Shown: piece after piece, positions 9,375 to 31,574 of the stretch
How the letters are laid out: each line of letters opens with the position of its first letter
Numbering within the stretch: position 1 is the first letter of the stretch
Sequence record: PP989839.1
Reading direction: 5' to 3' (one strand)
From: Escherichia phage VTCCBPA_322
Length of the DNA: 64,000 nucleotides
The notes under the pieces: model-generated
The model's input: the letters and a program-made list of their open reading frames with translations, nothing else
What the model was told of the DNA's origin: nothing
The model's database searches: none
Program-made: the position numbers and the translations under genes

Positions 9375-10577
9375 ATGTTAAACTATAACGCTCCAATTGA
9401 CGGTCAGAAATCTAGCATTGATGGTGCTGGTTCCGACCAGATGAATACCTTTTACTGGCTGAAGAAAGCTATTATTCAGTCTCGTAAAGACCAGTACTTC
9501 ATGCCACTGGCTAACACCATTAACATGCCGAAGAACTACGGTAAGACTGTTAAGGTGTATGAGTACGTTCCTCTGCTCGATGACAAGAACATTAACGATC
9601 AGGGTATTGATGCTAACGGTGCTACCATTGTTAACGGTAACCTGTATGGTTCTTCTAAAGACGTAGGTAACATCACCTCTAAACTGCCTCTTCTGACAGA
9701 GAACGGTGGTCGTGTTAACCGTGTAGGATTTACTCGTCTGTCCCGTGAAGGCTCCATCCATAAATTTGGTTTCTTCTACGAATTTACCCAAGAGTCCCTG
9801 GACTTTGATTCTGATGACCAGCTGAAAGAACACCTGTCTCGTGAACTGATGAACGGTGCTGTACAGCTGACCGAAGCTGTTCTCCAGAAAGACTTGTTGG
9901 CTGCTGCTGGTACTGTACTGTATGCAGGTGCTGCTACCTCCGATGCTACCATCACTGGTGAAGGTTCTACTCCGTCTGTAGTTTCTTATAAGAACCTGAT
10001 GCGTCTTGACCAGATTCTTACTGAGAACCGTACTCCGACTCAGACCACTATTATCACTGGTTCTAAACTGACTGATACCAAAGTATTGGGTGGTACTCGT
10101 GTAATGTACGTTGGTTCTGAACTGGTTCCAGAACTGAAAGCGATGAAAGACCTGTTCGGTAATAAAGCATTCATCGAAATTCAGCACTATGCTGATGCTG
10201 GTACACTGATGAATGGTGAAATCGGTTGTATTGATAAGTTCCGTATTATCCAGGTTCCTGAGATGCTGCATTGGGCAGGTGCTGGTGCTCAAGTTTCTTC
10301 TAACCCGGGTTACCGTACTTCTATGGTATCAGGTCAGGAACACTATGATGTGTTCCCGATGCTGGTAGTTGGTGATGACTCCTTCTCTACCATTGGATTC
10401 CAGACTGATGGTAAGTCTGTTAAGTTCTCCATCATGACTAAGATGCCTGGTAAAGAAACTGCTGACCGTAATGATCCGTATGGCGAGACTGGCTTCAGTT
10501 CTATCAAGTGGTACTACGGTATCCTGGTTAAACGTCCAGAACGTCTGGCTCTGATTAAGACTGTTGCTCCTCTGTAA
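9375..10577 (+). CDS. major capsid protein (N4 gp56-like)
   Basis: ATG with AGGAA RBS; 400 aa; optimal-looking codon usage (ctg/cgt/ggt-rich); follows scaffold-like gene; followed by hairpin terminator. Confidence 0.65.
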
Positions 10578-10594: not shown

Positions 10595-10620
10595 AGGGGG
10601 ACATTAGTCCCCCTCTTAAT
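10595..10620 (+). terminator. hairpin terminator after capsid gene
   Basis: AGGGGGAC-ATTA-GTCCCCCT 8-bp stem followed by CTT; weak T-run. Confidence 0.4.
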
Positions 10621-17345: not shown

Positions 17346-17383
17346 TTCCTATATACGATATAAGTTTGAACAGGAAACATGCT

Positions 17384-20300
17384 ATGTCAACATTTGACCG
17401 TCTGGCAGGTTTCGCAGACAGCATCACTAATGCCAAGCAAGTCGATGTCTCTACTGCAACCTCTCAGAAGCAAGCTGCACAAGGGCAAAGCCCTTTCCAA
17501 TTAACCCCAGAGAATGCTTACAATCTCCAAACTGGTCGTGTAGGTAATCTTGGAATCGGTGCATTCGAACCAGGTTCACTTCAGGCAGATTTCACTCAAG
17601 CCTCTCCATTAGAAATTCTTAATAAATACGGTAATGAGCAAGGTCTACAGATTCTTAATAGCCGAGCTAATGCTGCTGATGTTGTACGTCAGGACTTATC
17701 TAAGCAACGTACTAACGCAGAAGCATTTGGTGATACTCTTTCTGGTGTTGGTCTTGGTGTTGCTAATACCCTTGGGGGCATTGCTGCTCTTGGCACAGGT
17801 CTGGTCAATGATAATGCCGGGGCATCCATTGCTTCCGGGATGGATTGGTTGAATGAAGGTGTACACAATCTACAGTCTGATGCACTGAATGCTACCCGTA
17901 AGGTTGTTCAGAATCAGAACCTGATTTCTGCACAAAAGAACCAGAAACTTTATGAAGAAGACATTAAGAATGGGGAGAGCAGTTTGGTTGCCTCCTTGTC
18001 TCGCATTGGTCGTGACGCTTTTGATTCCGTTGCTAATACACTTGATAATGGTATGGCTGCCACCGATGGACTGAGTGAAGGTGTTGGTTCCCTCTTTACT
18101 GGTGGTCCACTTATCCGTGGTGTATCTGCACTTGGTAAAGTAATGGTAGGTGGTGATAAAGCTATTAAAGGTATTACCTTAGCTGCTGAGTTAGGTTCAC
18201 GCCCTGCACAGGTTGCATTGTCTGCTGGTCGTGTTGCTGCACCTGCTATAGCAATTGGTGGTATGGAAGCTGGTGGTGCATACCAACAGACTGCTTCTGA
18301 AATCATGAAGATGTCCCATCAAGAATTAGCAAGTAAGTCTCCTGTTTATCAACAACATATTGCTGATGGTTTATCCCCTGATGAAGCTCGTCGTCAGACT
18401 GCATCTGAAACAGGTATCGTTGCTGCTGGCTTAACTGCTCCGGTTGCTGCTGCTACTGGTCCACTGGTATCCAAATTTGAACTCAACCCCCTTAAAGTAG
18501 GTTCACTGGCTGGTGCTGGCTCTAACATGCTACGTGAGACTGTAGAAGAAGGTATCCAGTCCGGTACTAGTCAGTTTGCACAGAACAAAGCAATTCAGGG
18601 TAATGTAGATGCTAAGCGTGATTTGCTTAAAGGTGTCGGTGAACAAGCAGGTCTTGGTGCACTTTATGGCTTCGGTAGTGCTGGTGTTGCTCAGGCTCCA
18701 GGTGCAACTGTTAAAGCTGTTGGTGCTTCTGCTGGGCCTGCTTTACGTACTACTCTGGCTGGTGCTTCTCTGGTTGGTAGTGCATTAGCAAAAGCTGCCT
18801 CTCCTATTACTAACATCCTGGTTCAACGTGGGGAAGAAGTTGCTAAGCGTAATGAACAAGCATCTCCTGTATCAGACGCTACAGTTAACGCTGCTGCACA
18901 AGAAGCTACTGCTCAGGCAGAACAAGCACAAGCAACTGTACAGGAAGCAGTAGATGCAATGGATATTTCTCCTGAAGAGAAAGCTGCTGCTACTCAGTAT
19001 GCTGCTGACTTAACTCAGGCAATGAAGTTTGACCCAGTAGAGTTAGAGCAAGCTAATCCAGCAATCCGTGAAGCTGTTTCTGGTTCCACTAACCGTGTAG
19101 AAGCTATTCAGAAGATGGCTGACCTGGTTAATACTGCTGAAGACCCTAACGTTCAAATGGAAGCTGCAATCCAGATGTATGACAACATCATGTCTATGGA
19201 TAGCTTCATTAATCGTGACCCGGGTGCTTTGGCTAATCTGGAACAGGGTTCTCCTGCTGCTAATATTGTTGACCAGTTCTCCGGTCTGATGGCTAACGTA
19301 CAGAATACTCCAAAGGTACTTCGTGCATTCCGTGCCATCCATTCTATGATTCAGGAACAGGCTGAAGCAGGTAAGTTAAAAGCTACTGAAGAAGCTAATC
19401 AAGCCCAAGCAAACAACATTGCTATGGCTGCTGATATGTCTCCAGAAGTATTGGATGCAGATTCAGTGAACATGGTTCTGAAACATGCAAGTGAAGGTAA
19501 GATTACACTGGGTAATCGTCAGCGTGCTGCCTTGCAATCTGCTGCTGCTTTATTACAAGGAGCACGGGAATTTGACGCTAAAGCAGAAGAACTGGGCTTA
19601 CGTCCTCAGGACATTGTTAGTAAACAGATTAAAACCGACGAATCTCGTTCTAATGAAGGTCAGTACTCTGCGTTGCAACATGCTAAACGCATTCGTTCTG
19701 CGTACAACTCTGGTAACTTCGATTTGGCTTCCGCTTATCTCGACGACTTTATGAAGTTCGCCCAGCACATGCAGAATAAGGTCGGAGCGTTGAATGAGCA
19801 TCTGATTTCTGGGAATGCGGATAAGAATAAGTCTGTCCATTATCAGGCTCTTACTCCCTCCCGTGAATGGGTACGTAGTCGTACTGGCCTCGGTGTCAAT
19901 CCGTATGATACCAAGTCGGTTAAGTTTGCCCAGCAAGTAGGACTGGAGGCCAAAACCGTAGCTGATATTGCTAATGCACTTGCTACGGCTTACCCGGAGC
20001 TTAATGTTTCTCATGTGAAGGTTACCCCATTAGATTCACGTCTGGACAAGCCTGCTGCCCAGGTGGTTAAAGAGTTCCGTCAGGGCAATCTTGACGCTGC
20101 TCAATCCCAACAGACCAATGAACCAGTGAATCAGGTTGATAAATCTCCTGCACCTGTGCAAGAGGCCACTACTACTGTACAGCCTAAAGCTAAACTAGTG
20201 GTAGAAAATAAGACTGTTCCTGTTAAGGAGACTAGTTCAAAAGCAGAAGAAGTCTCTACTACCGAATCCGAAAGGGATGCTTATGTGAAAGAAAATACTA

Positions 20301-23300
20301 TTTCACAGGACATCCTCAATAAGAGCGGTGATCGTAGAGAGAGTCCTTGGCTCTTTGCTGATGGTACTGTTGTTGGTTCTAACGGCGATCACATTAGCCT
20401 GTCCGATGTATTTGGTCACGATGGCTATCGTGATATGTCTTTGGATACTGGTGCTGTACGTTCTACTTTCTATAAAGGCAGTGAGCAACCATTCGTATCT
20501 TTGCAACTTTTTGATAATCAGAAGCTAACTACTGAACAATTCAATACTGTTCAATCATTCGTAGAAGCAAACAATGCACTGATTCAGATTGGTGTAGATA
20601 CGTCTGGGCGTAACACCAATAACGTTGAGAAGATAGAAGTATCACTGGCCCAACTGAAAGCAGACTATACCGTTGGTGGTAAACCCCTGTCTGAGATGGA
20701 AACAGTGTTCCCTGTCTATAACAATGACAAGACACCGAACCAGTTCCTGAAAGCATTTACCCTGCCGGAAGAACCTAAGTCTCGCACCATTGGTTCTGAA
20801 TCCCCTTTGACTGATGTTAAGCAAGCACTGTCTTCTGCTGCTCGCTTTGAAGCATTCACTCAAAAAGAAAATAACGCTCTCACAAGTGATGTGATTAAGC
20901 GTTATCAGGACTTAATGGACTTTGGTGAAACTCTGAAGACTACTTTGTCTGACCGTCTGACTAAGTTTCTTGCTAATAAGAATGTTGGTAAACGTTTTGC
21001 AGAAGGTACTGAGGCTAACCGTTGGGTAGGTGGTAAGTTACTTAACATCGTAGAGAAAGATGGGGATACCTTTAAGTTCAATGACCAGTTGTTAGAGACT
21101 GCTGTACTTGCTGGTCTGCAATGGCGACTTACTGCTACACAAAATGCTGCTGTTAAAGATATGAAAGACGTAGCTGCTATTACTGGAGTAGAAGCATCCT
21201 TGTTACCTGAAGGTATCCTGGCTGAATTTGAGAATGCTCAGACTCTGGTTGAAGCTACTAACTCACTGGCTCAAAAGATTGAATCTTACTGGGGTCTGAA
21301 TCGTAATCCTAATGCACCTCTGGGTTATACCAAAGGTATCCCAATGGCAATGGCTACAGAGATTCTGTCTTCTTTCATTGAGATGGGTGAAGTTAAAGAA
21401 TCTATGCTGGATGTGTCTGAGTTTGACCCAGCTTCTAATAAGACTGTTGGTCTGTATACTATTGAGAAACTGGATGATAATGATGCCATTAACAAATTCC
21501 CTACTGCTATTGAGGAAGCTGTCCTCGTAGAACCAGAAGAGAAAATGTACTTTGGTGATGATATTCCTTCCGTGGCTCAAACACAGTTACGTAATCCTGC
21601 TGTTAAGAATACCCCAGAGCAGAAAGCTGCTCTTAAAGCAGAACAGGCTACCGAGTTCCGTGTACACATGCCTATGGTTAACTTCTATGAAGCATTAGGT
21701 CGTGACAACATTCTGGAACTGATGGGTGCTGGTACTCTTAATCCTGAACTGCTGAACGTGAATACTGCTAAATCATTGGAAGGTAAAAACCTGTCCGTGT
21801 CCATGGCATATGATTCCTTGTTTGGTGTAATCAATCAATTACAGGAACAGGAGAATGGTCTGGATACGCCTATTCACTATGGTTACAACATGACCCGTGT
21901 AGGTCGTATGCAGATGCTTGGTAAGAACAACCCACAATCCAGCAAGCTGGTTCGTGAAGCAATTCTGCCAACCTTCTCTACTATTGACTTAAGTAATGAA
22001 AATAGCCAAACGTTCTCTGACTTCCAGTTAGGTCTGGCTCAGGCATTGGGCATCAAGGTTCATAATATGTCCCGTGAAGCTATGTCTGAAAAACTGACCA
22101 AAGCTCTGGAAGGTAATTTGAAACCTGCTGTTGATATGATGGTTGAGTTTGATAAGTCCGGTCACTTACCTGCTGATGCAGTAGATATTCTGAAGACATC
22201 TCTGGGTGGTGATAAATCATTCGTAGCTCTTATGGCTCTTATGGAATATGCCCGTTACCTTAACAGTACTGACCGTGCTAACTTTAATACCCCACTGTAC
22301 GTTGAAGCCGATGGTGTAACCAACGGGCCAATCAATGCAATGGTATTAATGACCGGTGGTAAGTTCACTTCGGATTGGATTAAGAATACTGCTAAAGGTG
22401 GTTTGTTCTTCGGTAAAGCTGGTAAGACTATGAACGAACACCGTTCACAGGATGACAGTGTTGACTTGTATGAAGCATCTACTAATGGTCTGCAACAAGC
22501 ACTAAATGAGTTACGTACTACTTACCGTAATAATGTTCCGGTCATGAACCAGATGAATCATCTTCAGAAGTTAATGGACCTGTTCATTAAAGACTTTAAC
22601 CTGAACGAAGACGGTACTTTGGACCTGAAACGTGGTATCGCTAAAAACCCACTGACTATTACCATCTATGGTTCTGGTGCTCGTGGTATTGCTGGCAAGA
22701 TGGTTAGTGCAATTACTGACACCATCTATGAACGCTTCAGTGATGTTCTGCAAGCTCGTGCTGCTGACCCTAGCATTTCCCCAGCTATGGCAATGTTTGG
22801 TAAGGAGGCTGCGTCTGAGGCTAATGCTCAGGCTATGCTGGATACTTTCCTTACATCTATGGAAGCACTGACTGGTAATGTTCCAGTTATGCGTAAAGGT
22901 CAACTGTCTATTCAACAGGTAGAAGGTGCTCTGACTGGTAAGTTAGACCCACAGAAATTTACTGTATCTGGTAATGCCCTGAAGAACTTACAAGAGAACA
23001 TGCTTCACCTGTTCGTTGAACCAATGCGTACTGGTATCCGTAATACTGTTGGTGAAGGTCTTATGCATTCTACTGAGAACTTGCAGAAGGCTACCCAGAT
23101 TCAGTCTTTGGTTCTGCAAGACATGTTCCAACAAGCAGTACAGGCTAAGCTGGCAGAAAAAGAAAAAGACCCAACATGGAAGAAGGGTGATTTCTTAACA
23201 CAGAAAGAACTTAATGAAATCCAGGAATCATTATCTCCACTGGCTCCAATGATTGAGACTGGTTCACAGACTTTCTACATTGCTGGTAGTGAGAATACTG

Positions 23301-26300
23301 ACGTTGCTAACCAAGTTCTGGCTACCAACTTAGATGATCGTATGCGTGTGCCAATGAGCATCTATGCTCCTTCACAGGCAGGCGTTGCAGGTATTCCATT
23401 TATGACCATTGGTACTGGCGATGGCATGATGATGCAGACCCTTTCTACTATGAAAGGTGCTCCGAAGAATACCCTGAAAATCTTTGATGGTATGAACATT
23501 GGTATCGACAACATCACTGATGCAAGTCGTAAAGCTAACGAGGCTGTATACACTTCCTGGCAGGGTAACCCTATCAAGAATGTCTACGACTCCTTCTCTA
23601 AGTTCATGAAGAATGTAGACTTCAGCAAACTGTCTGATGAAACCAAACAGGCTATCGCTAAATCTGCTCTGGAATATGACCAGCGTGAAGGTGCTACCGA
23701 TGACCTGTTACGTGTTGGTGCTGAACAGATTGAACGTAATCTGCGCAACATTGCTCTGGGTGTGGATATTCGCCACAAAGTAATGAACCAGGTACAGACT
23801 ACTGTTGACCAGATGGCTGCTGTAGGTGCTCCTTATGTGAACAACGGTAAAATCTCTCTGGAAGGTCTGACTGTAGACCAGCAAGTAGCTAAGCTGAACG
23901 AACTGTTTGATGCTGAGTTAAACAAGCGTCGTGATGCAGTACGTGCTGCTAAAGCAGAACCAGTGAAAGAAGTACCAGCAATGGAACAGGTTGGTCGTGT
24001 ACTGAAGTCTGGTGTACGTCTGCTGTCTAATACTGCTATCTCTAAGCTGGCTAAAGAGATGTCTCCGGAACAGCAAGCGGTACTGAAAGAAGTACAGAAA
24101 TCCCTTGCTGCTAAAGACTACAAAGTTGTTTATGGTACTCCTGCTCAATTAGATGCTTATGCTATTGAGAAGAATATTACTCGCCCAGCACCAGAAGATA
24201 TTGAAGCTGCTGAAGCAGGTAATGCATACGGCTGGACTAACTTTGATGATAAGACTATCTACTTAGTTACCCCTTCCTTGGAGACTCTGGTTCATGAATT
24301 GGTACATGCTTCTACTTTCGAATCTGTACTGGCTCATTATGAAGGTACTCCAAATGAAGCAGTCCAAAATATTGAAGACTTAATGAATCAGTTCCGTACT
24401 CTGGATGTTAAGGATGAATCTCCGGCAGTACGCGAAGCATATGCAGATGCTCTTAATACCATTAATGGTCATTTGTCTAATGGCTTCATTGAACCAGCAA
24501 TGGCTAAAGCTGCTGCACTTAACGAGTACATGGCATGGGGTTTAACTAACCGTGAACTAATTAGCAAGCAGAAGAAAACTACTGCACTGAAGACTATGGT
24601 TCAGGCTGTGTATGAAGCAATCAAGCGTCTGGTATTCGGACGTAAGAAAGCTCCCGCTAATGCAGATGATATGTTCTCTGGTTTACTATTTAACTCTGCT
24701 GTAGTTATGCGAGGACAAGCTCCTACTGCTGCTGTAGCCAAGGATACTACTCTGTTCCATAACAAAGCATACGGTGACAATACTCGTCTGGAAGAGCTAG
24801 GGAAAACCTTCGATAAACTGATTACAGACTACATTGGTTCAGAACCAGTACAACAAGTAATTCGTAAGGGTAAATTCTCTGATGCAGTAGTGAATGCAAC
24901 TAAAGTAACCCGTGATGTTCAGGCTCATGGCTTCACTATGAATATGCAGGAACAGCGTCTATTCACTAACATCGTTGCTGCTCTGGCTACTGAAGCTGCC
25001 ATTAGTCCTGCTGCCCTGGCTCGTGCACAGGAATACTATACGCATGTTACTAAGAACCTGACCGTTGAATCGTTCATGGCTGACCCGGATAGTACTAACC
25101 CTGCTGACCGTTACTATGCTCAACAGAAGTTCGATACCATTATGGGTGCTAACAATATTGAGTTTGATGCACAGGGCCGTTCTTCCTTACTGCCTACCTT
25201 TGTTGGTCTGGCAATGGTAAGTGAAGAGGTACGTAAAGTACTGGCAGACATTCCTGTTATGAAAGCAGATAAGCAATCCGGTAATACAGTTGATGCAATG
25301 CTGACTAACATTGGTACTGCTGCAATGGCTAGTCTGAATGCTCGTGTAGCGGGTGATACTAAGGCTACCAATGTACAGGAAGGTATGGATGCACTGGCTC
25401 AGACAATCATGCAGACGAGTCTCAATGCACAGTCCTTCTATGATTCCGTTGCTACTCCTAGTGGTAATGCTATTGACCGTGCTAACCAGTATCTGGTGGA
25501 TTCTATTGATGCATTGTCTACCCGTGCTTTAGAAGGTGCTCGTGAAGTTGCAGCTAATACCAAGAACCCGTTGGTTAAAGGTGCTGCTCATGCTGCACAA
25601 CTAATAGCTGCTATTGCTACAGAGAAGAATGGTGAAATCGTAGCTGAAGGCGTTATGGCTGCAATGAACCAGGGTAAAGTGTGGCAACCTTTCCATGACC
25701 TGGTTAATGACTTAACAGGCCGTACTAAGAGCAATGCTTCTGTATACGATTTGATTAAGGCAGTACGTGCACAGGTACAAGCTGACCGTCAACAGTTCCG
25801 TGAACATTTGCCTACCACTATCGCATCTAAGTTCAGCCGTAAGCTGACTAATGATGAATGGAAAGCAATGCATACTGGTATGGGTAAAACTGACTTAGCT
25901 GTTTTACGTGACACTATGTCTCTGGCTGAAATTCGTGACTTGCTGACTGACCAAAAGATTGTTGACCGTGAAGTGAATAAGCTGGAAGCAGACTTACAGA
26001 AACAAGCTGGTCGTAACTGGCCTCTGATTAGCCGTAAATCTAAGCAACTAGCTCAGTACATGATTAACGGTACAGTTGGTAATAACCTGCTGCGTAATGC
26101 TACAGCAATCTCTCGTATGCTGGGTGAACGTCAGGCTGCACGTTCTACTGTAGATGTAGCTCAACTGGATAAACTGATTACTCTGTATGCACTGGAAGCA
26201 ATGAGTAAGACTGACCGTGAGATGTTATCTTCACTGGCTCAATCAGAAGTTGATGGAATTGATTTTGCTACTTCTTACCTGGTTGGTCAGCGTAAAGATG

Positions 26301-28096
26301 AAATGGCTAAAGCCAAGTCTGACATGCGTGCAACCCTGAACCAGTACAAAGGTTATATCCCAAGTGAGACTAAGCAAGGTGTTAACCTGATTGTTGCTGA
26401 AGACAGTCAATTTGCTGATTTGATTGAGAAGTCTTATGTACGTCTGGGTACTTATCAAGGTAGTTCTGCTAATCGTGGTTCAGCACGTAGCTACTACTTC
26501 GCACCGGTACAGGCACAGGCTCCATTCTCACAGGGTATTCTACAGAACGTTCGTAATACTGCTGGTGGTGTAGACCTTGGTACAGGATTTACGATGGGAA
26601 CCATGGTGGCTGGTCGTATTACTGACAAGCCTTCTGTAGACCGTATCACTAAAGCACTGGCTCGTGGTGAACGAGGTAATGAGCCACTGATGCCTGTATA
26701 TGATGACAAAGGTAATGTAGTTGCTTATGAACAATCTATTGACCCTAACATGCTGAAGCACATTGAGGGTGAGAACCATCTTGCTCGTGCAATCGGTGTA
26801 TGGCGTGGTCGTCAGGTGGAAGAAGCTAAGGCTCAGCGTTTCAACGATATGCTAATTGAGAATCTGCATAGCATGTATGAGAACGACATTAAGATGTCTG
26901 CCTCTAATAAGTCCCAGTACGTTAACCTTCTTGGTTCTAAGCTGGACCCAGTAACTGCTGATGCCCTTAAGCTGATGAACAGTGAAACACGTCAGAAAGC
27001 AGAAAGCCTGTTTGGCGAAGGTGAACTGTGGGTTCGTCGTGACATGCTGAATGATGCACTAGGCTATCGTGCAGCTTCCGTTGGTGATGCCTGGTCTGGT
27101 AATTCTCGTTGGTCCCCGGAAACACTGGATACCTTTAAGAAAGCTATGCTTGGTGTGTTCGGCAACCGTGCCTACAAGTATGTAATGGGTGGTGAGAACC
27201 TGGTTCAGAACTTAGTTAAAGAAGCTAAGACTCTGATTGTAGTTAAATCAGTGGTTGTACCTGCTGTTAACTTCCTGGCTAACCTTTACCAGATGGTTGG
27301 TCGTGGTGTACCCGTTAAGAACATTGCTAAAAGCATTCCACAGAAGACTGCTGAGATTAACCAGTACCTGAAATCTCGTCTGCGTCAGGTAGACGCAGAA
27401 GCAGAATTACGTGCAGCCACTAACCCGAACCAGATTCGTAAACTTAAGGCTGAGATTCAGTCTATTACTGACAGCCATAAGCGTATGAGTATCTGGCCTC
27501 TGTTAGAAGCTGGTGAGTTCTCTTCAATTGCAGATGCTGGTATTGGGCGTGATGATATCCTGATTACTGAGGGTAAACTCCATGAATACATGGATAAACT
27601 GGCTGATAAGTTACCTAAGTCTGTACGCAACGCTGGACGTTATGCACTTATCACCAAAGATACTGCTCTCTTCCAGGGTATCCAGAAGACGGTTGAGTAC
27701 TCTGACTTTATCGCTAAAGCAATCATCTATGATGATTTGACTCAGCGTAAAGGTAAGACTCGTGAAGAAGCACTAGGACGTGTAACGGAGGAGTTCATTA
27801 ACTATGACCGTTTGCCTGGTCGCTTCCGTGGGTATATGGAAAGTGTTGGTTTAATGTGGTTCTACAACTTTAAGATTCGTTCTGCGAAAATTGCAGTATC
27901 CATGATTCGTAACAACCCGGTACATGCAGCTATGGCTATGTTGGCTCCAACTCCTACCATGTTTGGTAACGTTGGTTTACCTATTCAGGACAACATCTTC
28001 AGTATTGCTGCACAAGGTAATCTTGGTTACTCCTGGGGCTTCGGTCAGGGCTTACGTGCCCATAACCTTAACCCTTGGCTCAACCTCACTAACTAA
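17384..28096 (+). CDS. virion-encapsidated giant RNA polymerase (N4 gp50-like vRNAP)
   Basis: 3570-aa ORF (ATG 17384 with AGGAAA RBS; track start 17366 is TTG); central region has T7-like polymerase motifs: DG near PLYVEADGVTNGPINA, motif B-like KNPLTITIYGSGARG, motif C-like KIFDGMNIG; hallmark of N4-like phages. Confidence 0.9.
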   Translation: MSTFDRLAGFADSITNAKQVDVSTATSQKQAAQGQSPFQLTPENAYNLQTGRVGNLGIGAFEPGSLQADFTQASPLEILNKYGNEQGLQILNSRANAADVVRQDLSKQRTNAEAFGDTLSGVGLGVANTLGGIAALGTGLVNDNAGASIASGMDWLNEGVHNLQSDALNATRKVVQNQNLISAQKNQKLYEEDIKNGESSLVASLSRIGRDAFDSVANTLDNGMAATDGLSEGVGSLFTGGPLIRGVSALGKVMVGGDKAIKGITLAAELGSRPAQVALSAGRVAAPAIAIGGMEAGGAYQQTASEIMKMSHQELASKSPVYQQHIADGLSPDEARRQTASETGIVAAGLTAPVAAATGPLVSKFELNPLKVGSLAGAGSNMLRETVEEGIQSGTSQFAQNKAIQGNVDAKRDLLKGVGEQAGLGALYGFGSAGVAQAPGATVKAVGASAGPALRTTLAGASLVGSALAKAASPITNILVQRGEEVAKRNEQASPVSDATVNAAAQEATAQAEQAQATVQEAVDAMDISPEEKAAATQYAADLTQAMKFDPVELEQANPAIREAVSGSTNRVEAIQKMADLVNTAEDPNVQMEAAIQMYDNIMSMDSFINRDPGALANLEQGSPAANIVDQFSGLMANVQNTPKVLRAFRAIHSMIQEQAEAGKLKATEEANQAQANNIAMAADMSPEVLDADSVNMVLKHASEGKITLGNRQRAALQSAAALLQGAREFDAKAEELGLRPQDIVSKQIKTDESRSNEGQYSALQHAKRIRSAYNSGNFDLASAYLDDFMKFAQHMQNKVGALNEHLISGNADKNKSVHYQALTPSREWVRSRTGLGVNPYDTKSVKFAQQVGLEAKTVADIANALATAYPELNVSHVKVTPLDSRLDKPAAQVVKEFRQGNLDAAQSQQTNEPVNQVDKSPAPVQEATTTVQPKAKLVVENKTVPVKETSSKAEEVSTTESERDAYVKENTISQDILNKSGDRRESPWLFADGTVVGSNGDHISLSDVFGHDGYRDMSLDTGAVRSTFYKGSEQPFVSLQLFDNQKLTTEQFNTVQSFVEANNALIQIGVDTSGRNTNNVEKIEVSLAQLKADYTVGGKPLSEMETVFPVYNNDKTPNQFLKAFTLPEEPKSRTIGSESPLTDVKQALSSAARFEAFTQKENNALTSDVIKRYQDLMDFGETLKTTLSDRLTKFLANKNVGKRFAEGTEANRWVGGKLLNIVEKDGDTFKFNDQLLETAVLAGLQWRLTATQNAAVKDMKDVAAITGVEASLLPEGILAEFENAQTLVEATNSLAQKIESYWGLNRNPNAPLGYTKGIPMAMATEILSSFIEMGEVKESMLDVSEFDPASNKTVGLYTIEKLDDNDAINKFPTAIEEAVLVEPEEKMYFGDDIPSVAQTQLRNPAVKNTPEQKAALKAEQATEFRVHMPMVNFYEALGRDNILELMGAGTLNPELLNVNTAKSLEGKNLSVSMAYDSLFGVINQLQEQENGLDTPIHYGYNMTRVGRMQMLGKNNPQSSKLVREAILPTFSTIDLSNENSQTFSDFQLGLAQALGIKVHNMSREAMSEKLTKALEGNLKPAVDMMVEFDKSGHLPADAVDILKTSLGGDKSFVALMALMEYARYLNSTDRANFNTPLYVEADGVTNGPINAMVLMTGGKFTSDWIKNTAKGGLFFGKAGKTMNEHRSQDDSVDLYEASTNGLQQALNELRTTYRNNVPVMNQMNHLQKLMDLFIKDFNLNEDGTLDLKRGIAKNPLTITIYGSGARGIAGKMVSAITDTIYERFSDVLQARAADPSISPAMAMFGKEAASEANAQAMLDTFLTSMEALTGNVPVMRKGQLSIQQVEGALTGKLDPQKFTVSGNALKNLQENMLHLFVEPMRTGIRNTVGEGLMHSTENLQKATQIQSLVLQDMFQQAVQAKLAEKEKDPTWKKGDFLTQKELNEIQESLSPLAPMIETGSQTFYIAGSENTDVANQVLATNLDDRMRVPMSIYAPSQAGVAGIPFMTIGTGDGMMMQTLSTMKGAPKNTLKIFDGMNIGIDNITDASRKANEAVYTSWQGNPIKNVYDSFSKFMKNVDFSKLSDETKQAIAKSALEYDQREGATDDLLRVGAEQIERNLRNIALGVDIRHKVMNQVQTTVDQMAAVGAPYVNNGKISLEGLTVDQQVAKLNELFDAELNKRRDAVRAAKAEPVKEVPAMEQVGRVLKSGVRLLSNTAISKLAKEMSPEQQAVLKEVQKSLAAKDYKVVYGTPAQLDAYAIEKNITRPAPEDIEAAEAGNAYGWTNFDDKTIYLVTPSLETLVHELVHASTFESVLAHYEGTPNEAVQNIEDLMNQFRTLDVKDESPAVREAYADALNTINGHLSNGFIEPAMAKAAALNEYMAWGLTNRELISKQKKTTALKTMVQAVYEAIKRLVFGRKKAPANADDMFSGLLFNSAVVMRGQAPTAAVAKDTTLFHNKAYGDNTRLEELGKTFDKLITDYIGSEPVQQVIRKGKFSDAVVNATKVTRDVQAHGFTMNMQEQRLFTNIVAALATEAAISPAALARAQEYYTHVTKNLTVESFMADPDSTNPADRYYAQQKFDTIMGANNIEFDAQGRSSLLPTFVGLAMVSEEVRKVLADIPVMKADKQSGNTVDAMLTNIGTAAMASLNARVAGDTKATNVQEGMDALAQTIMQTSLNAQSFYDSVATPSGNAIDRANQYLVDSIDALSTRALEGAREVAANTKNPLVKGAAHAAQLIAAIATEKNGEIVAEGVMAAMNQGKVWQPFHDLVNDLTGRTKSNASVYDLIKAVRAQVQADRQQFREHLPTTIASKFSRKLTNDEWKAMHTGMGKTDLAVLRDTMSLAEIRDLLTDQKIVDREVNKLEADLQKQAGRNWPLISRKSKQLAQYMINGTVGNNLLRNATAISRMLGERQAARSTVDVAQLDKLITLYALEAMSKTDREMLSSLAQSEVDGIDFATSYLVGQRKDEMAKAKSDMRATLNQYKGYIPSETKQGVNLIVAEDSQFADLIEKSYVRLGTYQGSSANRGSARSYYFAPVQAQAPFSQGILQNVRNTAGGVDLGTGFTMGTMVAGRITDKPSVDRITKALARGERGNEPLMPVYDDKGNVVAYEQSIDPNMLKHIEGENHLARAIGVWRGRQVEEAKAQRFNDMLIENLHSMYENDIKMSASNKSQYVNLLGSKLDPVTADALKLMNSETRQKAESLFGEGELWVRRDMLNDALGYRAASVGDAWSGNSRWSPETLDTFKKAMLGVFGNRAYKYVMGGENLVQNLVKEAKTLIVVKSVVVPAVNFLANLYQMVGRGVPVKNIAKSIPQKTAEINQYLKSRLRQVDAEAELRAATNPNQIRKLKAEIQSITDSHKRMSIWPLLEAGEFSSIADAGIGRDDILITEGKLHEYMDKLADKLPKSVRNAGRYALITKDTALFQGIQKTVEYSDFIAKAIIYDDLTQRKGKTREEALGRVTEEFINYDRLPGRFRGYMESVGLMWFYNFKIRSAKIAVSMIRNNPVHAAMAMLAPTPTMFGNVGLPIQDNIFSIAAQGNLGYSWGFGQGLRAHNLNPWLNLTN

Positions 28097-28097
28097 A

Positions 28098-28128
28098 TGA
28101 AAAAGCCCCTCTAATGAGGGGCTTTACT
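28098..28128. terminator. bidirectional intrinsic terminator at convergence of late (+) and early/middle (-) transcription
   Basis: AAAGCCCCTC-TAAT-GAGGGGCTTT 10-bp stem; U-run on minus strand (TTTTTCATTT), weaker on plus. Confidence 0.75.
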
Positions 28129-28136
28129 CTTAGAAG

Positions 28137-28367
28137 TTAAGGTGTTTTCCACATTTTAGGCTTACGCCCTTCACTTGGAAATTTACCAGTCTCCTTAATC
28201 TTTCGTAGTGTTTCTTCAGATGGGAACCACAGGAATGTGAAGTAAAGCTTCTTAGCTACGTAACGAGTTACTCCTAGTTTCTCTGCGATTTCATCGAATG
28301 AATATGTACGAACGGTATTGTTGAGAATGGCTTCACGAACAACAGAGGTAATAGATACTTGTGTCAT
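28137..28367 (-). CDS. small protein with HTH-like segment
   Basis: ATG at 28367 with AGGAAA RBS; 76 aa; SFDEIAEKLGVTRYVAKK resembles helix-turn-helix. Confidence 0.5.
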   Translation of the reverse strand: MTQVSITSVVREAILNNTVRTYSFDEIAEKLGVTRYVAKKLYFTFLWFPSEETLRKIKETGKFPSEGRKPKMWKTP

Positions 28368-28386
28368 GCTATTTTCCTATAAATGA

Positions 28387-28420
28387 GAAAGCCCTCACTA
28401 GGAGGGCTTGTTTTGTTTTG
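28387..28420 (+). terminator. hairpin with plus-strand T-run inside minus-strand module (antisense-blocking or bidirectional terminator)
   Basis: GAAAGCCCTC-ACTA-GGAGGGCTT followed by GTTTTGTTTT on plus strand. Confidence 0.4.
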
Positions 28421-28489
28421 GCTTCTTGAGCCTTACCACTTGTCTGGTAGTTCAGTACCTTTCGGTAAAAACTACCTTACATCTTTGAA

Positions 28490-28870
28490 TCAGATTGTAC
28501 AACCACCACCATCACAGGTGTTGTTTTCTGCAAAGGAAGCTAGAGCCTTAGCTGTCTCCTCTTTCTCATGCAGTGCCTGACGTAGCAGGTAACCCTCTAA
28601 TTCCCAAATCTTATTGAATGCATTTTCATATGCATACTGACGGCCTTTCTTCTCATCATAGATAGTTGGGTCTACACAGGCAGATACACCTTCAACTTTG
28701 AAGCCGTTTTCTAGGATGATAATGCAATGAGTTGTCAGACCCAGGTTAGCTAAATCATCTGCCGGGAGTGCAGATGGATCAACGAATGCAGACTTCACTG
28801 CATCAGCACCATTGAAATAGTAGACGCTCTTAATCTTAGCTTCGATTGCTTCTTTACTTACTGTTGCCAT
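28490..28870 (-). CDS. hypothetical protein
   Basis: ATG at 28870 with GAGG RBS (track start 28882 also ATG); 126 aa; preceded by terminator 28931-28968. Confidence 0.5.
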   Translation of the reverse strand: MATVSKEAIEAKIKSVYYFNGADAVKSAFVDPSALPADDLANLGLTTHCIIILENGFKVEGVSACVDPTIYDEKKGRQYAYENAFNKIWELEGYLLRQALHEKEETAKALASFAENNTCDGGGCTI

Positions 28871-28930
28871 TATTAGCCTCATAGAGTGGTTTTAGTGTGT
28901 GCTTAAACATGATTACGTTTATTAATACTC

Positions 28931-28968
28931 AAATAAAAAAGTCCCCCAGAGTGACGGCTCCAGGGGAC
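28931..28968 (-). terminator. intrinsic terminator ending the non-coding / tRNA-like transcription unit
   Basis: minus strand AAGTCCCC...GGGGACTT stem followed by TTTTTTATTT. Confidence 0.65.
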
Positions 28969-29752
28969 TTAGTACTATTTACCCATAGCTGGGAGGCTTT
29001 TGGTTCTTACCACGAAGACAGTCCACGCTGACTAGGCTTGGGATTGATAGTCCCGTTCCTGTGGTAATTACTCAGGCTAGGATTTAAGGAGTTCCTATTC
29101 TCCAGCGAAATTCCCGTCGAGGGGAATAACAATACAATAGCAGCCACTGGACTGTCTTACCAGTGTTGTCTTTAGAGTGCTGTGCAATCAGGACTATGTT
29201 ACTGCTAAATAGGTGAGTCATGCCAGGCTCTAACTGGCTCCTTCTTCGCAATCCTTACATACCCCTACATAATTATTGCGTTAAGCTTTTTTGTTTAAGT
29301 TTAAGTGAAGGCGTTCTTGCTGACTCATAATTAGGTTGGGCGTTTGACGAATGACTAGTTCGTTACTACCCGTTTGCCATAAGTACCTGGCGACTTTGGT
29401 TTGAGGTGGGAGTCCGAGTCCTGTACAGCCTTACCGTTCACACATTGGCAGCGTATCTAGAATAGCACTTCCGGCAACTGGATTTAACTGTTACACCTCA
29501 AATCTGGTAGGGGCGTCCAGAAGTCTCATCTGGTACTTACGCCGTCGTATGGTTACGACTTACCCCCATTGTTAGTTGCTCGGCTCACCCCCTCGACTAA
29601 AGTGACCTTTGAGGGGCTACGCTACACTATGTGTTTCATCCCATTACAGAGAATCATCAGGCGTATTAGTTGGTCACCCCGGATACCTACTTACCGAGCA
29701 TTGGTATCGTATGACTCTTCCAATTAGAAGTAGCACTGTTGCAGTCGTCACT

Positions 29753-29826
29753 GCCCATAGGTAAGGACTCGAACCTTACAATACCATTGGTTTACAATGT
29801 CGCTGTACCATTTCGCGTTCTATGCA
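29753..29826 (-). tRNA. tRNA-sized tRNA-like element (degenerate or unusual tRNA)
   Basis: minus strand: canonical T-arm TAAGG-TTCGAGT-CCTTA, D-loop-like AAATGGTACA flanked by CGC/GCG, anticodon-like arm CATTG-TAAAC-CAATG; acceptor pairs only 5-6 of 7; no encoded CCA. Confidence 0.3.
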
Positions 29827-29840
29827 ATGCTACTTTGAAT

Positions 29841-29964
29841 TGGTTATCAGTGAAGGATTCGAACCTCCGGTTGGAGTCTATAGCTTACCGCAGCAGCCCT
29901 CCAATCTAGCGGTGTCACACTTAGTCCAAACTTGAACATGTCAAGCCATCTCGTGCAACTGATA
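29841..29964 (-). ncRNA. tRNA-like RNA, about 124 nt, with perfect acceptor stem, canonical T-arm and encoded CCA
   Basis: minus strand 5'-TATCAGT...GGAGG-TTCGAAT-CCTTC-ACTGATA-A-CCA-3'; 7/7 acceptor pairing; long internal stem TTGGAG/CTCCAA abutting T-arm; too long for a canonical tRNA. Confidence 0.45.
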
Positions 29965-29966
29965 AT

Positions 29967-30094
29967 TGGTTCCAGGAGAAGGAATCGAACCTCCAAGTCA
30001 GGCCGTGAACCCTGACTATATCACCTACACTTAGTAGGCTTACTCTAACTGCTGCGCATTACATTAAAGCTATACCTAGTGTTGATATCCTGGA
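29967..30094 (-). ncRNA. tRNA-like RNA, about 128 nt, with perfect acceptor stem, canonical T-arm and encoded CCA
   Basis: minus strand 5'-TCCAGGA...GGAGG-TTCGATT-CCTTC-TCCTGGA-A-CCA-3'; 7/7 acceptor pairing; 7-bp variable-arm-like hairpin AGTCAGG/CCTGACT abutting T-arm; separated from next element by AT. Confidence 0.45.
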
Positions 30095-31130
30095 ATTGGA
30101 GTTGCCAGGGATTCCACCTGGCTCCATCTGTTTTTATAGTCACTCAGATATCGTCTGGACTCTTTACTGTGGGCTGTACCGACTACTTAGAATAACTACG
30201 GCAAAGATTATTCCACAGCTTACATTGATGGTACAACCCATCAAAGAGTACACTAGCACTGGGCCACGCATAAGTGGGCATCGGCCTTCCTCCCACAGCT
30301 AATCTACTAATGTACTCATTGATAGGATGTCATAATAGGAGGGAGGGGACGAATCCTCCCTTTATACCCTATGTTGCATGTAAGACCTAACATCTCGATG
30401 TTGTATAAATAGCGTAATGAACTATCCGACATTATTGGTTAATGTTGTGCTCAACATGAGCGTTAGTTGATAAGGGATCTGAAGCCTTATCCTAAAGATT
30501 CTAACCTTTGGGATATAGCCTAAGATTCAGAAATGGCCCCTATAGGGAGAGGCCATTGATTAACCCGAATGTTGCTTTACATTTTCTGTAATAACCAATT
30601 CTTAAAATAGTCTGTCTGACGGATGGGGGGCCACCCCTAGCGTCAGTGCCATACGGCAAAGATTAAGTTAAGAAAGGTTATGATAGGAGTTCCTATCTCA
30701 AAGGATTCTAACAGAACCCTTCACGATATTAACTACTCTTTTTTAATGCCTTTACTTCACCATCTTTATACCAAGCATACGGTATTAAGATTTTGCATCC
30801 TTCCGAATCAATGTGGAATGCTTTTTTTCCTTCAGCAGGTTCTCCACCCACGAAAGAACTAACCTTTCCATTGAGCCAGTGAATAGTAAATTTGTTCATG
30901 CTAACCCCGTTTGAACCAATCCCCTTCGGAGAGTATTAAAGGGGACTGGTTCGGTTGTTGTTATTCTGGCGGCTTGTCACCACCGTGTTTACCACTGCAT
31001 TTCCACAGGATAATGACAGTGATGATAAAAGCTATGTATGGAGCCGACACGTCTATAATTCTGACCAGTAGTAGCATCAGGACTATAAACACTACCACAC
31101 CTAGCAGCAGCTTCTGAGCCACCTACCAGA

Positions 31131-31574
31131 TTAACTACGTTTAAGGCCAGCGAACAGTGAAGGCTTAGTAGCAGGTTTCTCTGCCGGTTCTTCAGCCTTA
31201 ACTTCTTCCTGCACAACTTCTTCTTGTGCTTCTGGTTCAGCTACTGCTTCTTCTTCAGGTTCCGGCGTAGAACTCTCGTTCTGACCACCAGTAGAGGTCT
31301 GGATTTCTTCTTCCTTTACCTCTTCAACCACTTCTTCCGGTTCCGGTTCTACCGGACGGTGTTTGGCTTCCTGCGGGTTCTTACGAGAACGACGTGTCTT
31401 CTTCTCTACCAAGGGTGGAGTATCATCGTTATGACTTACCTCTTCGTTAATACCAATGGAGGCTGTGCCATCTGCATTTACAACAATGCTGGCTTCCCCT
31501 GGATAATTAACTTGTTCATCTACGTATGCCTGAATAGCTGCTTCTACTTCAGCTTGGTTCAAAGTGATTTGCAT
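31131..31574 (-). CDS. highly acidic protein with SSB-like C-terminal tail motif
   Basis: ATG at 31574; 147 aa, Glu/Pro-rich; C-terminus KPSLFAGLKRS resembles C-terminus of adjacent SSB-like protein (KSLFGKR). Confidence 0.5.
   Translation of the reverse strand: MQITLNQAEVEAAIQAYVDEQVNYPGEASIVVNADGTASIGINEEVSHNDDTPPLVEKKTRRSRKNPQEAKHRPVEPEPEEVVEEVKEEEIQTSTGGQNESSTPEPEEEAVAEPEAQEEVVQEEVKAEEPAEKPATKPSLFAGLKRS

Follow-up and report, generated by a model that had tools for sequence, protein, structure and literature searches.

A plus-biased, putatively bidirectional terminator hairpin of Escherichia phage VTCCBPA_322 that appears to be a second copy of the convergence terminator and borders an accessory-gene slot

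Close counterparts of the locus analysed here come from the N4-like phage LUZ7, in which mapped transcript ends gave 61 termination sites, 19.7% of them antisense to genes. More than 60% of the LUZ7 terminators are leaky, middle transcripts cross into the late region, and four bidirectional terminator regions were described, one of which lies outside convergent genes (PMC9163698). Ju et al. 2019, as cited in PMC9163698, describe bidirectional terminators as pervasive among bacteria, and inefficient terminators of phage T7 are cited there as well. The middle promoters of LUZ7 are GC-rich hairpins with a stem of at least 6 bp and a loop of 3-4 nt, located ~15 bp upstream of the start (PMC9163698), and the N4-type promoter of the virion RNA polymerase (vRNAP) has a 5-7 bp stem and a 3-nt loop with the core GC-TCC-GC on the transcribed-sense strand, followed by TTATGGA (PMC6950046). 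In T4-type phages, the stem-loop motifs termed PeSLs coincide with indel breakpoints between close relatives and were proposed to mediate the homologous exchange of unrelated cassettes (PMC2839356, PMC4122927).

Here, a hairpin designated H2 was analysed in a stretch of 64,000 nt from Escherichia phage VTCCBPA_322 (PP989839.1), hereafter the window, together with a second hairpin, H1, located at the end of the vRNAP gene. By its sequence, H2 is a putative intrinsic terminator of an ordinary, already described type that lies in an unusual place. It resembles the bidirectional terminators of LUZ7, which are GC-rich stem-loops with an A-tract on one side, a T-tract on the other and a direction-dependent efficiency, and the one bidirectional region of LUZ7 outside convergent genes offers a parallel to its location (PMC9163698). 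H2 differs from them in lying between co-directional genes, ~290 nt inside a block of minus-strand genes, and in being paired with H1, the strand bias of which is opposite. The homologous single hairpin of phages U1G and HK2, in turn, is situated exactly between convergent genes, as is the case for bidirectional intrinsic terminators.

As a pair, H1 and H2 are also similar to tandem or leaky terminators, for example those with sequential read-through in LUZ7 (PMC9163698), since the second hairpin would catch the read-through of the first; however, H2 is located inside genes of the opposite orientation, and the interval that separates the two stops runs antisense to a gene. With the PeSLs (PMC2839356, PMC4122927) they share the appearance of repeated stem-loops at breakpoints of variable genes. 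PeSLs are composites of terminator and promoter present in many copies per genome in hyperplastic regions, whereas H1 and H2 are two copies at one locus and, unlike the PeSL composite, show no sigma-70-like promoter at either hairpin in a simple scan.

Genome setting of the convergence point

A megablast search with positions 27800-29300 matched 81 phage records, nearly all of them from Gamaleyavirus, which places the window among the G7C-like relatives of N4 (Gamaleyavirus; Schitoviridae, Enquatrovirinae). In the matched Gamaleyavirus records, the largest ORF of the region (17366-28096) is named virion RNA polymerase. Upstream of this ORF the genes have plus-strand orientation, which changes to minus-strand orientation for those between 28137 and the end of the window. 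The motif scan revealed three N4-type vRNAP early-promoter hairpins, in which NNNGC-TCC-GCNNN is followed by TTATGGA or TTAAGGA. The minus-strand location of these three hairpins assigns the early and middle genes to that strand and the late genes to the plus strand; the hairpins also mark which end of the genome is early and which way early transcription runs. The late plus-strand programme and the early/middle minus-strand programme meet at ~28100.

H1 is annotated as a terminator on both strands in the G7C, PhAPEC5, PhAPEC7 and SP5M records. H2 is separated from the nearest plus-strand gene, i.e., from the end of the vRNAP gene, by 293 nt with H1 intervening, and within the window it does not lie between convergent units, both flanking genes being on the minus strand. 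No sigma-70-like plus-strand promoter was found between H1 and H2 by a simple scan. The coordinates of the features are given in Table 1. The 76-aa ORF listed there is also present in G7C, SP5M and Mimir124.

Related phages carry a tRNA gene (Ile or Val) at the place corresponding to positions ~29170-29246 of the window. In VTCCBPA_322, both flanks of this tRNA are kept and abut at ~29208-29215, so that the tRNA slot is empty; ARAGORN found no tRNA in the whole 64 kb window.

Table 1. Features of the convergence point and of the early end, in window coordinates (d, terminator score used for ranking; pi, nucleotide diversity)
Feature	Coordinates	Strand	Description
vRNAP gene	17366-28096	+	3,576 aa; last gene of the late plus-strand block, from which any plus-strand read-through would come
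Direct repeat, left copy	28094-28108	+	TAAATGAAAAAGCCC; vRNAP stop codon and left flank of H1
H1, convergence terminator	28102-28125	strand-neutral	AAAGCCCCTC/TAAT/GAGGGGCTTT; directly 3' of the vRNAP stop
76-aa ORF	28137-28367	minus	phrog_9565; sole gene of the H1-H2 slot in VTCCBPA_322
Minus tail of H2	28376-28390	minus	TTTCTCATTTATAGG; interrupted U-tract; T-weight 3.23, top 0.43% of 15-mers
Direct repeat, right copy	28380-28394	+	TAAATGAGAAAGCCC; left flank of H2
H2	28389-28409	strand-neutral	8-bp stem AAGCCCTC/GAGGGCTT, 5-nt loop ACTAG
H2, first arm	28389-28396		AAGCCCTC
H2, loop	28397-28401		ACTAG
H2, second arm	28402-28409		GAGGGCTT
Plus tail of H2	28408-28422	+	TTGTTTTGTTTTGGC (gene-sense A-tract CAAAACAAAACAA); T-weight 3.81, top 0.12% of window 15-mers
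T-run	28410-28419	+	GTTTTGTTTT; directly 3' of the H2 stem
Hairpin B	28420-28432	strand-neutral	GGCTTCTTGAGCC; stem conserved, 3' arm invariant, 3-5 nt loop hypervariable (pi 0.46)
Hairpin A	28446-28476	minus	GGTAGTTTTTACCGAAAGGTACTGAACTACC; 31 nt; invariant GAAA tetraloop on the gene-sense strand; pi 0.023
gp48-like gene	28490-28870	minus	Pfam PF13876, Phage_gp49_66; its 3'UTR contains H2 and the conserved block
H3	28939-28970	minus	strong terminator upstream of gp48, d = +38.8
N4-type vRNAP early-promoter hairpins (n = 3)	63916-63904, 63142-63130, 58657-58645	minus	motif scan

Anatomy and strand bias of H2 and its kinship with H1

The original prediction had described a hairpin with a T-run on the plus strand amid minus-strand genes. 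The stem, the loop and the T-run were confirmed in the sequence, letters and coordinates alike, and the neighbouring genes, namely the 76-aa ORF and the gp48-like gene, are indeed all on the minus strand. Five of the eight base pairs of the stem are G-C, so H2 is a GC-rich stem-loop. The core folds with -10.2 kcal/mol, the minus-strand RNA with -12.7 and the plus strand with -17.3, the stem being lengthened by A/U pairs in the latter case; taken alone, the local fold z-scores at H2 are weak (-1.9 and -1.5). Both tails fall within the top 0.5% of T-weight, and each strand reads as a hairpin followed by a U-tract, the arrangement of a bidirectional terminator. The plus-strand U-tract, TTGTTTTGTTTT, has T at 10 of 12 positions and is able to pair with the A-rich flank upstream; this pairing could make termination less efficient. 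The minus-strand U-tract next to the stem, TTTCTCATTTAT, is T-rich yet interrupted, and the tail continues into the sequence that serves the 76-aa ORF as ribosome-binding site.

All hairpins with 5 or more stem pairs and G/C closure were then ranked by a d'Aubenton-Carafa-type score d, the values of which serve for ranking only. Scoring was performed on the G/C-core stems, as A/T pairs included in the stem would take T's from the tails. On the plus strand, H2 has d = +10.2 and ranks 14th among 184 hairpins; on the minus strand its d of -3.6 is just below the threshold. Across both strands of the 64 kb, 14 hairpins score at least as high as H2 on the plus strand, compared with 0.07 +/- 0.25 in 30 dinucleotide-preserving shuffles, and the combination of hairpin and T-tail at H2 is not due to chance. 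A simple terminator scan lists H2 on both strands. In sequence, H2 is a bidirectional element with a bias to the plus strand. The strong T-run attributed to the plus strand is thus real (top 0.12%, d = +10.2), whereas its exclusiveness is not, given the minus-strand tail (top 0.43%, d = -3.6).

Several other identities of the H2 region were considered. The plus-strand ORF 28383-28580 was rejected as coding, as it is not conserved and 1-nt indels in the adjoining conserved block break any frame. ARAGORN finds neither a tRNA nor a tRNA remnant there. According to the motif scan, H2 is not an N4-type vRNAP early promoter, having a 5-nt loop without the GC-TCC-GC core, and hairpin B has no match to the promoter motif either. 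An Rfam scan of positions 27500-31500, with laxer filters for 28360-28510, yielded only sub-threshold matches to a generic terminator hairpin.

The strand bias was further compared in 20 phages bearing a gene cassette between H2 and the vRNAP gene. In this set, d of H1 ranges from 20.3 to 56.7 on the minus strand and from -23.2 to 43.8 on the plus strand, and that of H2 from 6.8 to 10.9 on the plus strand and from -6.3 to 3.8 on the minus strand. H1 is better on the minus strand in 19 of the 20 phages, the exception being ECBP1, and H2 is better on the plus strand in all 20. The tails differ in the same manner: the minus U-tract of H1 is TTTTTC or TTTTTT in 19 phages (all except G7C), none of the phages has an uninterrupted minus U-tract at H2 (TTTCTC or TTTATC in most of them), and the plus tail of H2 is always TTGTTTTGTTTT or TTATTTTGTTTT. 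In PD205 and pSb-1, the plus-strand score of H1 is below the threshold (-23.2 and -0.7, respectively), and H2 is therefore the first adequate plus-strand stop after the vRNAP gene in these two phages. In VTCCBPA_322, H1 has a strong minus tail (TTTTTCATTT, d = +34.7) and a weaker plus tail (TTTACTCTT, d = +13.0), the latter scoring no lower than the plus strand of H2; a backup stop is therefore possibly seldom needed there. Since the whole block containing H2 is conserved, the conservation of the T-run is not specific evidence of selection on the T-run itself.

It is also conceivable that H2 acts on the minus (gene-sense) strand only, as a leaky terminator, an attenuator or a stabiliser of the 3' end of the gp48 mRNA, the plus-strand T-run being merely its A-tract or a relic. 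Every local gene is on the minus strand and H2 lies 81 nt past the gp48 stop codon; the minus tail is T-rich in its own right; and weak Rfam matches (terminator-ending leaders and sRNAs) that span the whole conserved block fall on the minus strand. The PhAPEC5 record marks the H2 homologue as a minus-strand (gene-sense) terminator predicted by ARNold, but this annotation is absent from the G7C record and from the nearly identical PhAPEC7 record, which is consistent with a borderline minus-strand signal at H2. The plus-strand score of H1 in the window, which is as good as that of H2, points in the same direction. However, each of the 20 phages has an interrupted minus U-tract, scoring at or below the threshold, and a better plus tail, and the slot gene that begins ~20 nt downstream would be silenced if minus-strand termination were efficient. 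Moreover, the equivalent tail in U1G and HK2 is the only terminator tail of the vRNAP gene. With these points weighed, action on the minus strand only is a credible but unlikely reading.

The two hairpins have similar stems and share a 15-nt direct repeat at their left flanks, the copies of which are 93% identical, lie 286 nt apart (start to start) and flank the 76-aa gene. The similar stems and the repeated left flank indicate that H1 and H2 are related; H2 seems to represent a second, diverged H1 copy that includes the sequence overlapping the vRNAP stop codon. Duplication of the convergence terminator, with the accessory-gene slot enclosed between the two copies, would then explain why H2 lies among minus-strand genes.

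A mirror case was noted elsewhere in the window, where the plus-strand GC hairpin GGGGGACATTAGTCCCCC (10596-10613) follows the major capsid gene (9375-10577, plus strand). Its good T-run, TTGTTTTATTT, is on the antisense minus strand (d = +26.7), and its sense tail is poor (d = -7.5). This hairpin is conserved in Gamaleyavirus, in a region ~77% identical to N4-like phages.

The accessory-gene slot and the conserved block beside it

Loci for comparison were collected in two ways, with the gp48 protein (without selection on the hairpin) and with the intergenic DNA, which gave about two dozen Gamaleyavirus loci. H2 is present in 20 of 20 relatives with genes between H2 and the vRNAP gene. The number of these genes varies: none in U1G and HK2; one in VTCCBPA_322, G7C, PhAPEC5 and PhAPEC7; two in SP5M, Mimir124, PW8 and ZQ2; three in IME11; and four in E20. 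Their products include proteins resembling Tad2 (PF11195, Thoeris anti-defence 2-like) or related to crAss001_48 (PF21825), alongside small uncharacterised ORF products. The slot of VTCCBPA_322 (28126-28388) contains no Tad2-like gene, and PADLOC analysis of the slot proteins gave nothing significant.

When phages with differing cassettes are aligned, homology stops just past H1 (GGGGCTTTA) and restarts at AAATGA before H2. Across 22 loci the cassette homology breaks at H1 and H2, and the slot is flanked by the 15-nt direct repeat. By comparison of these loci, the H1-H2 interval is a slot of accessory-gene gain, loss and exchange in G7C-like phages. The exchange most likely proceeds by recombination at or between the hairpin repeats.

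In U1G and HK2, the vRNAP stop codon is followed by a single H1-type hairpin and then by the rest of the conserved block and gp48. The plus tail of this hairpin is TTTTATTTTGTT in U1G and TTTAATTTTATT in HK2, with d of 43.0 and 18.9 on the plus strand and 34.7 and 37.9 on the minus strand, respectively. In both phages the vRNAP gene has no terminator tail other than the T-rich sequence beside the block, which has stayed T-rich though its exact sequence is unlike the H2 tail. The tail shows a 14-nt match to the H1 flank of ECBP1 and PGN829.1 and from there continues as the H2-side block; given how readily T-rich sequences align, this match is not decisive. The empty slot of U1G and HK2 may be either the ancestral state or the product of a deletion by recombination between H1 and H2. 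Whichever origin applies, the arrangement in these phages shows H1 and H2, as judged from the alignments, to be interchangeable partners.

In the outgroup phage N4, gp48 and gp49 overlap (TAATG), and both H2 and the block are absent. Its convergence point has one H1-type hairpin, GCCCCTCATTAGAGGGGC, at the same position as H1. Klebsiella and Pectobacterium N4-like phages have one terminator directly after gp48.

In the minus-strand direction, only ~20 nt separate H2 from the point at which the first slot gene starts, and expression of the slot therefore needs minus-strand read-through of H2, which fits the weakened minus tail. The short and similar distance between H2 and the ribosome-binding site of the first slot gene in every phage, together with the GC-rich hairpin form of the LUZ7 middle promoters (PMC9163698), might instead suggest a hairpin-type middle promoter from which the phage RNAPII drives the slot genes, as in LUZ7. 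Such a promoter is very improbable here. The G7C-like phages group with N4 (Enquatrovirinae), whose RNAPII reportedly uses sequence motifs and not hairpins; U1G and HK2 retain the hairpin without a downstream gene; and H2, with its loop of 5 nt, is bordered on either side by T-runs like all other terminators of the genome and is unlike the N4-type vRNAP promoter hairpin, which is present three times elsewhere in the window.

H2 is part of a non-coding block of ~110 nt (~28380-28490) located right after the gp48 stop codon. On the gene-sense strand, the order of its elements is hairpin A, hairpin B, an A-rich linker and H2. The block is kept irrespective of the gene content downstream, and the gene upstream of it also varies, being gp48, a 49-aa ORF (G7C, pSb-1) or an 82-aa ORF (SP5M, IME11). 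The 1-nt indel polymorphism in the block excludes coding.

Remnants of gp48 were observed at several of these loci. In G7C (locus 1620-1769) and pSb-1, the 49-aa ORF that replaces gp48 keeps the gp48 start MRLIM and its end GGCTI, and a piece of the gp48 3' end is still present behind the 82-aa gene inserted in SP5M and IME11. The retention of the gp48 ends in these four phages suggests that the last ~25 nt of gp48 act as part of the recombination block. In PW8 (locus 1518-1540), the H2 loop is inverted with the stem unchanged (GCCCTC-CTAGT-GAGGGC versus GCCCTC-ACTAG-GAGGGC), which may represent a hairpin-loop inversion.

Nucleotide diversity was calculated on 19 distinct sequences with orthologous gp48. 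It is 0.055, 0.024 and 0.185 at the first, second and third codon positions of gp48, respectively, and 0.078 in the block core (Mann-Whitney test of the core against third positions, p ~2e-5). Within H2, it is 0.25 in the loop and 0-0.07 in the stems, and hairpin A is at the level of second codon positions. RNAalifold analysis of 22 distinct block sequences gave three hairpins. Compensatory changes were found at none of the 24 pairs in these sequences, so covariation neither decides the strand nor proves the structure. The z-scores of the block fold are similar on both strands (-3.3 on the minus strand and -4.0 on the opposite one), and folding thus does not discriminate between them. The hairpin A motif occurs once in the window. 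In IMG/VR, its core was found only in Gamaleyavirus contigs, apart from chance matches; hairpin A is absent from N4 and other N4-like genera, and the Rfam scans gave no family matching the block or hairpin A. On these sequence grounds, hairpin A is clearly functional.

These data bear on a further explanation, in which H2 is simply the 3' end of a structured RNA module in the gp48 3'UTR, such as a small RNA derived from that 3'UTR, a site of protein binding or a cis element governing read-through or processing ahead of the accessory slot. The low diversity of the block core and of hairpin A, the retention of the block whatever gene adjoins either side, the three-hairpin fold and the indels that rule out coding all agree with such a module. 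The lack of compensatory changes among the 24 pairs, the lack of a matching Rfam family and the equally good folding of the opposite strand do not, and its confinement to one genus leaves little divergence for testing. As an account of H2, the module is improbable. It is likewise rather doubtful that the ~110-nt block constitutes a lineage-specific functional RNA of G7C-like phages, whether a 3'UTR-derived small RNA or a cis read-through/processing element; if this were true, the block RNA would control either how the anti-defence and accessory genes of the slot are expressed or the antisense transcription that crosses the convergence point.

Proposed role of H2 and its meaning for Gamaleyavirus

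The reading that we favour, with moderate confidence, is that H2 is a diverged second copy of the bidirectional convergence terminator, that H1 and H2 together bracket the slot, and that H2 would serve as a backup stop on the plus strand while being leaky on the minus strand. Termination at H2 on either strand is inferred here from the hairpin and its tails. H1 retains a strong U-tract for minus-strand transcripts, for which it would be the true end of the transcription unit, and H2 retains a strong U-tract for plus-strand transcripts. Late plus-strand transcripts escaping H1 would stop at H2 as the second, backup terminator, and this stop would limit antisense transcription to the accessory slot, so that it would reach neither gp48 nor the replication genes. 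For minus-strand transcripts, H2 may function as a leaky terminator or as a hairpin stabilising the 3' end of the gp48 mRNA, and transcripts reading through it would allow expression of the slot genes. The leaky, antisense and bidirectional terminators mapped in LUZ7 (PMC9163698) make each element of this mechanism plausible.

The original prediction, according to which H2 may either end antisense transcription that has escaped the main convergence terminator or work as a weak stop in both directions, is partly borne out as far as sequence comparison goes. In its favour are the lower plus-strand scores of H1 relative to its minus-strand scores in 19 of 20 phages against the better plus-strand scores of H2 in all 20, the service of the tail by the block as the own terminator tail of the vRNAP gene in U1G and HK2, and the LUZ7 precedent (PMC9163698). 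It had missed that H2 is a likely copy of the convergence terminator, that it forms the edge of the slot and that its gene-sense tail is T-rich as well.

Taken alone, H2 matters little, as leaky, antisense and bidirectional terminators have already been mapped in this phage family. Modestly useful is the result for the convergence point of the vRNAP and gp48 genes in G7C-like phages, which represents a defined exchange slot bounded by two apparent copies of one terminator. The slot houses Tad2-like anti-Thoeris genes and other small accessory genes, and its recognition may aid annotation and searches for anti-defence genes. Hairpin A, in addition, is a clean candidate for a regulatory RNA or a protein-binding site. 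For H2 itself, the proposed duplication would give a simple account of a terminator that seemingly faces the wrong way.
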